From a phage: DNA of 228 nt. Below the pieces are notes generated by a model. The model searched no databases, was not told the DNA's origin, and saw nothing but the letters and a program-made list of their open reading frames with translations. Each line of letters begins with the position of its first letter. The stretch's first letter is position 1. Below, piece by piece: positions 1 through 228 of the stretch. The stretch is taken from sequence record K01277.1; one strand, given 5' to 3'. The position numbers and the translations under genes were made by a program.

Positions 1-67
1 CACTGTCGGCGAAGGTAAGTTGATGACTCATGATGAACCCTGTTCTATGGCTCCAGATGACAAACAT
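1..67 (-). CDS. insH: IS5 transposase InsH/Ins5A, N-terminal fragment; 5' end of the gene, truncated by the window edge
   Basis: Minus-strand translation from the ATG at 67-65 gives MFVIWSHRTGFIMSHQLTFADS, the N-terminus of the longer annotated InsH form. A second in-frame ATG at 31-29 gives MSHQLTFADS, the shorter form. The frame stays open to position 1. Confidence 0.85.
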   Translation of the reverse strand, partial: MFVIWSHRTGFIMSHQLTFADS

Positions 68-83
68 GATCTCACATCAGGGA

Positions 84-99
84 CTTGTTCGCACCTTCC
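84..99. repeat. IS5 terminal inverted repeat (IRL, 16 bp)
   Basis: cttgttcgcaccttcc is the reverse complement of GGAAGGTGCGAACAAG. It lies at the outer boundary of the element, 17 bp outside the upstream transposase ATG. Confidence 0.85.
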
Positions 100-103
100 C
101 TAA
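100..103. other. Candidate IS5 target-site duplication copy (CTAA)
   Basis: The tetranucleotide ctaa directly abuts the IS terminus. IS5 is known to insert at C(T/A)A(G/A) sites, most often CTAA, and duplicate 4 bp. The other junction is outside the window, so the duplication itself is unverified. Confidence 0.45.
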
Positions 104-112
104 GTGATCCCC

Positions 113-213
113 ATGTAATGAATAAAAAGCAGTAATTAATACATCTGTTTCATTTGAAGCGCGAAAGCTAAAGTTTTCGCATTTATCGTGAACGCTTTCG
201 CGTTTTTCGTGCG
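113..213. promoter_or_regulatory. Putative intergenic regulatory region: AT-rich tract followed by operator-like repeats; locus identity unknown
   Basis: All three forward frames hit stops within 100-135 and no ORF with a start codon and ribosome-binding site is present. 113-158 is AT-rich (aataaaaagcagtaattaatacatctgtttcatttgaa). The motif TTTCG recurs three times (175-179, 196-200, 205-209), each within a Y-TTTCG-YR context, and overlaps the inverted repeat. No confident -35/-10 pair could be assigned. Confidence 0.3.
160..202. repeat. Perfect 9-bp inverted repeat (cgcgaaagc at 160-168, gctttcgcg at 194-202) separated by 25 bp
   Basis: Direct reading: the reverse complement of 194-202 equals 160-168 exactly. 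A nested 6-bp stem (161-166 gcgaaa / 175-180 tttcgc) with an 8-nt loop is also present. The repeat is certain; its function is unknown. Confidence 0.6.
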
Positions 214-228
214 CCGCTTCACTCGGCC

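Follow-up and report, generated by a model that had tools for sequence, protein, structure and literature searches.

An IS5 end joined to the right end of bacteriophage Mu at a canonical CTAA target in mom

The 228-nucleotide stretch of phage DNA analysed here (sequence record K01277.1, called the window below) contains the left end of the insertion sequence IS5, joined to the right terminus of bacteriophage Mu. Alignment of the two parts argues that the junction is an IS5 transposase-mediated insertion at a canonical Py-T-A-Pu site. The reading that we prefer is a simple insertion of IS5 into a Mu genome or prophage, with a probability of about 0.7. The identity of the target, phage Mu mom/attR, was missed in the first-pass annotation of this DNA. 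The features of the window are as follows.

1–99, minus strand: IS5 left-end segment (IS5 nt 1–99), the rest of the 1195-bp element lying beyond the left window edge
1–31, minus strand, with ATG at 31–29: first 10 codons of ins5A (IS5 transposase), translation MSHQLTFADS; the rest of the gene, catalytic residues included, lies outside the window
75, no strand: private IS5 base difference lying between the ins5A start and IRL, with C in the window against T in the reference (A>G at IS5 nt 25)
84–99, minus strand: IS5 16-bp terminal inverted repeat IRL, reading CTTGTTCGCACCTTCC in the window (GGAAGGTGCGAACAAG on the minus strand) and matching the reference terminus at every base
100–103, no strand: CTAA target tetranucleotide (Mu 36595–36598), of which a simple insertion should leave a second copy at the far IS5 junction
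100–107, plus strand: residual 3' end of mom, …[CC]T AAG TGA, with the stop codon at 105–107
100–221, plus strand: bacteriophage Mu extreme right end (attR), Mu 36595–36717 (NC_000929), 99.2% identical
146–167, plus strand: MuA transposase-binding site R3, 22/22 against the consensus YGTTTCAYTNNAARYRCGAAAR, the same as in Mu
174–194, minus strand: MuA-binding site R2, 18/22 against the same consensus (Mu 21/22), with a 1-nt deletion
195–216, minus strand: MuA-binding site R1, 18/22 against the consensus, identical to Mu 36691–36712
222–228, no strand: host (non-Mu) flank CTCGGCC, following the last Mu base and too short to place

Window positions 1–99 align without gaps with the terminal 99 nt of the reference IS5 and are identical at 98/99 positions, so that 99 of the 1195 nt of the element are visible. 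The reference used was the copy in P1 mod1902::IS5 (AF234173), whose annotation gives 100% identity to J01735, the 1195-bp IS5 reference from lambda KH100. The 16-bp inverted repeat of IS5, GGAAGGTGCGAA(C/T)AAG, is found at 84–99, at the very end of the element, and pairs with the other terminus of the reference IS5, GGAAGGTGCGAATAAG, at 15/16 positions. The last base of IS5 is window position 99. This is where the repeat had been said to end, with CTAA following, and the alignment with the reference IS5 bears out that placement to the base.

The ins5A gene is directed away from the Mu end and is antisense to mom, and its region is annotated under equivalent matches as 'IS5-like element IS5 family transposase'. 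In 1521 E. coli genomes the IS5 end is matched at 7309 places, none of which is 100% identical over 1–99. Position 75 is T in all 42 of the IMG/VR IS5 copies and in every best E. coli match. It falls in a region described as the weak promoter Pins5A, which partly overlaps IRL.

To the right of the IS5 terminus, the window follows Mu as far as position 221. When bases 100–221 are compared with Mu 36595–36717 (123 nt), 121/122 match, and the sole difference is a 1-nt gap corresponding to one missing A. The Mu genome is 36717 bp long and the window reaches its last base at 221. Of 5426 complete E. coli genomes, 36 contain Mu-like prophage ends with the same sequence, at 96–99% identity, and the adjoining genes are annotated as mom. 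The 24 Mu-like right ends found in IMG/VR mostly terminate in …GCCGCTTCA and then continue into diverse flanks, which confirms the Mu boundary at 221. The variation of these flanks from locus to locus suggests that Mu inserted independently many times, or that assemblies broke at transposing Mu. DH5alpha (NZ_CP026085.1, 3778783–3778852) and BW2952, of the MC4100 lineage (NC_012759.1, 4180256–4180317), also carry orphan pieces of the Mu right end that lack annotation. These stubs are 61–69 nt long, match window positions 153–221, and are presumably relics of Mu-based strain constructions.

The MuA sites were located by a consensus scan, and the sites R1–R3 account for all the repeats in the window as well as for its two terminator-like hairpins. 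A promoter scan of the window gave no promoter-like sites, and the only Rfam match to it, at 18.8 bits, falls below the gathering score of 55. The missing A lies in R2, where the window has AA at 191–192 and Mu has AAA, within the conserved GTTTCA half of the site. The register of the R1–R2 repeat is thereby 21 nt instead of 22. In IMG/VR and the JGI metagenomes there are 0 matches to the deleted form of R2, and the intact form is present at 24 IMG/VR loci.

The deletion may be a sequencing error, being a change in homopolymer length, or it may be real, and the same applies to the change at position 75. The two private differences within 228 nt give grounds for doubt about the quality of the sequence. 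R2 is a core site of Mu transposition, and from this role a real deletion would be expected to impair transposition of this Mu end. Such an end could be transposition-defective, which matters only to users of the source strain.

The site before insertion can be read from uninterrupted Mu, which has …GGTTCAGCCATACC-CTAA-GTGATCCCC…, with a single CTAA at 36595–36598, exactly at the break. Among the 24 Mu-like right ends in IMG/VR, 8 reach the CTAA site, and the empty-site comparison was made on these. All 8 of the readable ends have the uninterrupted sequence CCATACC-CTAA-GTGATCC, with one CTAA there. It had been claimed that the exact junction gives the pre-insertion site, and this proves to be so: the site is Mu 36595–36598, found empty both in Mu and in the 8/8 ends. 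The exact IS5 terminus together with the single CTAA of the empty site implies that the junction was made by IS5 transposition. In the other 16 of the 24 loci, the DNA starts or stops within about 50–80 nt of the R2 motif, and most of these short loci (L060–L082) are contigs of a single IMG/VR sample, 3300045125.

The published target consensus of IS5 is Py-T-A-Pu (YTAR), with a 4-bp duplication (PMC5493358; PMC11677980). A sample of 48 distinct IRL flanks was collected from IMG/VR, and 44/48 (92%) are YTAR, made up of CTAG (16), TTAG (13), CTAA (11) and TTAA (4). The counts from ISfinder are CTAG 15/24, CTAA 3 and TTAG 3 (PMC5493358). The description of CTAA as 'the preferred' target therefore needs correction: it is a canonical target, and CTAG is commoner both in ISfinder and in the 48 flanks. 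There are only 7 YTAR sites in the last 400 nt of Mu, and a breakpoint placed there at random would abut one in approximately 1.75% of cases, so the CTAA at the junction is unlikely to be a coincidence. The flank from 100 to 170 is AT-rich, with 34% GC, which fits the bias of IS5 towards AT-rich sites that has been reported (PMC11677980).

On the basis of these observations, we hypothesise a simple insertion. It is favoured by the identity of the IS5 segment, the colinearity with Mu, the single CTAA of the empty site, the predominance of YTAR among IS5 flanks, and the proportion of IS5 copies with matching flanks, which is given below. The DDE transposase Ins5A would have made a 4-nt staggered cut at CTAA, Mu 36595–36598. 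The IS5 ends would have been joined at the cut, and repair of the gaps would have duplicated CTAA. The window would then be the IRL-side junction. The other junction would read …CCATACC-CTAA joined to GGAAGGTGCGAATAAG…, with the remaining Mu beyond it. Continued to the left, the window would thus show an IS5 of approximately 1195 bp ending …CTTATTCGCACCTTCC (reverse complement), with mom …GGTTCAGCCATACC-CTAA before it.

The mom coding sequence is 35877–36602 in NC_000929, and CTAA lies inside its last codons (CCT AAG TGA). The insertion point is three codons before the end of mom and 122 bases from the end of Mu. R3 begins 46 nt to its right, so that the insertion is outside the attR MuA-binding sites R1–R3. 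After a simple insertion, the 241 residues of Mom are predicted to be kept, because CTAA and the first G of IS5 rebuild CCT AAG. The stop codon would be lost, and the modelled protein continues into a 35-residue tail, EGANKRGNSSRLTQSFHFFMFEPIFSPVNALNQPI, to give 276 residues in total. The mom gene is non-essential to Mu, and headful packaging of Mu from the left end leaves roughly 1–2 kb of slack. As mom is dispensable and there is slack in packaging, a 1.2-kb insertion should be tolerated.

The modelled fusion was compared with protein collections. Among 5.8 billion cluster representatives there is no Mom with an IS5-derived tail, the matches covering either the Mom part or the tail and never both; the Mom cluster itself has 1295 members, of which 40 were read, so that a fusion differing by a residue could hide there. 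The exact 276-aa Mom-IS5 model gave no record by look-up, and Mu Mom itself is present on 194 contigs.

The junction was also searched for in DNA collections. The 25–29-mers spanning the IS5/Mu junction of the window are absent from the GTDB species representatives, the JGI metagenomes and IMG/VR. The whole window at a coverage of at least 80% is found in none of the 5426 complete E. coli genomes, nor in the phage records or plasmids. The modelled left junction is absent from IMG/VR and from the complete E. coli genomes; four E. coli matches to it with at least 80% coverage are 91.6% identical and represent chance extensions into the flank.

Several other candidates were rejected. The Mu/host 20-mer occurs in Deinococcus, Streptomyces and a Kofleriaceae MAG, in each case with no Mu upstream, and is a chance GC-rich word. 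A match to RP4-2-Tc::Mu (S17-1) that runs past the Mu end has GCCGGCA where the window has CTCGGCC. Matches to Klebsiella plasmids that reach window position 119 are gapped chance similarity, and have their own flank, TTAG.

The main alternative to a simple insertion is that IS5 inserted at this CTAA and that an adjacent deletion or an IS5–IS5 recombination followed. In that case something other than mom would adjoin IS5 on its left, and the Mu sequence in the window would be a 122-nt orphan attR stub left by a decayed prophage. Evidence on this comes from those IS5 copies in IMG/VR in which both termini can be read and the IRL flank is canonical. The same tetranucleotide is present at both ends in 13/20 of these and different ones in 7/20 (L015, L023, L028, L038, L046, L049 and L055, with for example CTAA and TTAA). 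The mismatches indicate frequent post-insertion rearrangement or IS5–IS5 recombination in prophage regions. Copies of insertion sequences that have no matching duplications, as a result of adjacent deletions or recombination between copies, have been documented (PMC11708052).

Given that about a third of the comparable copies are mismatched, one canonical flank cannot separate a simple insertion from a later rearrangement. This divides the first-pass annotation's contention that the junction reflects bona fide transposition and not a rearranged or truncated remnant: the IRL junction was indeed made by transposition, but a flank seen on one side is no proof that the element has stayed as it was inserted. 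Further points that are consistent with rearrangement are the Mu stubs of DH5alpha and BW2952, the private deletion in R2, such as might build up in a dead remnant, and the lack of any Mom-IS5 fusion protein on record. Nevertheless, there is no sign of a rearrangement within the window, copies with matching flanks are the majority in the sample, and the Mu stub is otherwise identical to Mu proper, and is therefore not old or decayed DNA. We consider a later rearrangement unlikely, while giving it more weight than any other alternative.

It might also be supposed that the join is not biological, and arose from a chimeric read or assembly, a laboratory construct or a poorly sequenced record. The absence of the junction from the E. 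coli, phage, plasmid, GTDB, JGI and IMG/VR collections searched would be in keeping with this, as would the two differences unique to these 228 nt; the change in homopolymer length in one of them is typical of sequencing error. However, a random chimera would have to break exactly where the IS5 inverted repeat ends and, on the partner, beside a YTAR site, of which the target side alone has the low chance value given above, and the geometry matches precisely that of a transposition product. An artefact is therefore very improbable.

A more elaborate possibility is that the window records the inactivation of a prophage in progress. If the R2 deletion is real, IS5 at mom/attR, possibly followed by an IS5-mediated deletion of Mu, would together with it leave an immobilised Mu end or an orphan stub; or else a Mom carrying the 35-residue tail would behave differently. 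We regard this as speculative, and rather doubtful.

Simple insertion, the preferred reading, has close parallels. One is P1 mod1902::IS5 (AF234173), which resembles the window in having the same IS5, the same 16-bp terminus and a CTAA flank in a phage genome. In P1 mod::IS5, CTAA is annotated as the 4-bp target duplication on both sides. The two differ in their target, which is P1 mod in the one and Mu mom/attR in the other, and in that the window has the change at IS5 nt 25 and only one of its junctions is visible. Insertions of IS5 at CTAA in E. coli K-12 (nmpC, and the activating insertion upstream of glpFK) are likewise in AT-rich sequence (PMC11677980; PMC5493358), and the nmpC::IS5 copy in a phage 434 record matches the window up to position 107. 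The nmpC and glpFK insertions have known regulatory or inactivating phenotypes, whereas for the window only an altered end of mom is expected. The right end of Mu in NC_000929 has R1, R3 and the terminus …GCCGCTTCA as in the window, and differs from it in lacking both the interruption by IS5 122 nt from the end and the 1-nt deletion in R2.

No literature precedent was found for IS5 at mom/attR. The title of a 1978 study by Chow & Broker (J Bacteriol 133:1427), 'Adjacent insertion sequences IS2 and IS5 in bacteriophage Mu mutants…', as cited in PMC3091744, is enough to show that IS5 insertions in Mu are a finding decades old. The presence of IS5 in phage genomes (lambda KH100, P1 and Mu) is already known since the 1970s. 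The Mu insertions of Chow & Broker reportedly lie near the early (left) region, not at mom.

Both the element and the phage are thus known and the target is canonical, and what is new is the location and not the kind of event. This is a routine mobile-element insertion, and the main gain is a base-exact entry point for IS5 in Mu. There is also a methodological point: a canonical tetranucleotide beside an insertion sequence is expected nearly always (92% here).

Some minor observations on coding sequences may be added. An open reading frame of 25 codons, MMNPVLWLQMTNMISHQGLVRTFPK, runs out of IS5 on the plus strand (window 30–107) and stops at the mom stop codon. The terminal CC of IS5 together with CTAAGTGA restores the final two codons of mom and its stop in frame. 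The open reading frame itself is probably meaningless. An E. coli protein of 97 aa (P0002, EAI64_13075) carries two tandem copies of the peptide from the IRR end of IS5, implying that an IS5 end has been duplicated in tandem. In a further protein (P0004), the N-terminus of IS1 InsA is fused to about the final 100 residues of Mom, which implies that other insertion sequences also land in mom.
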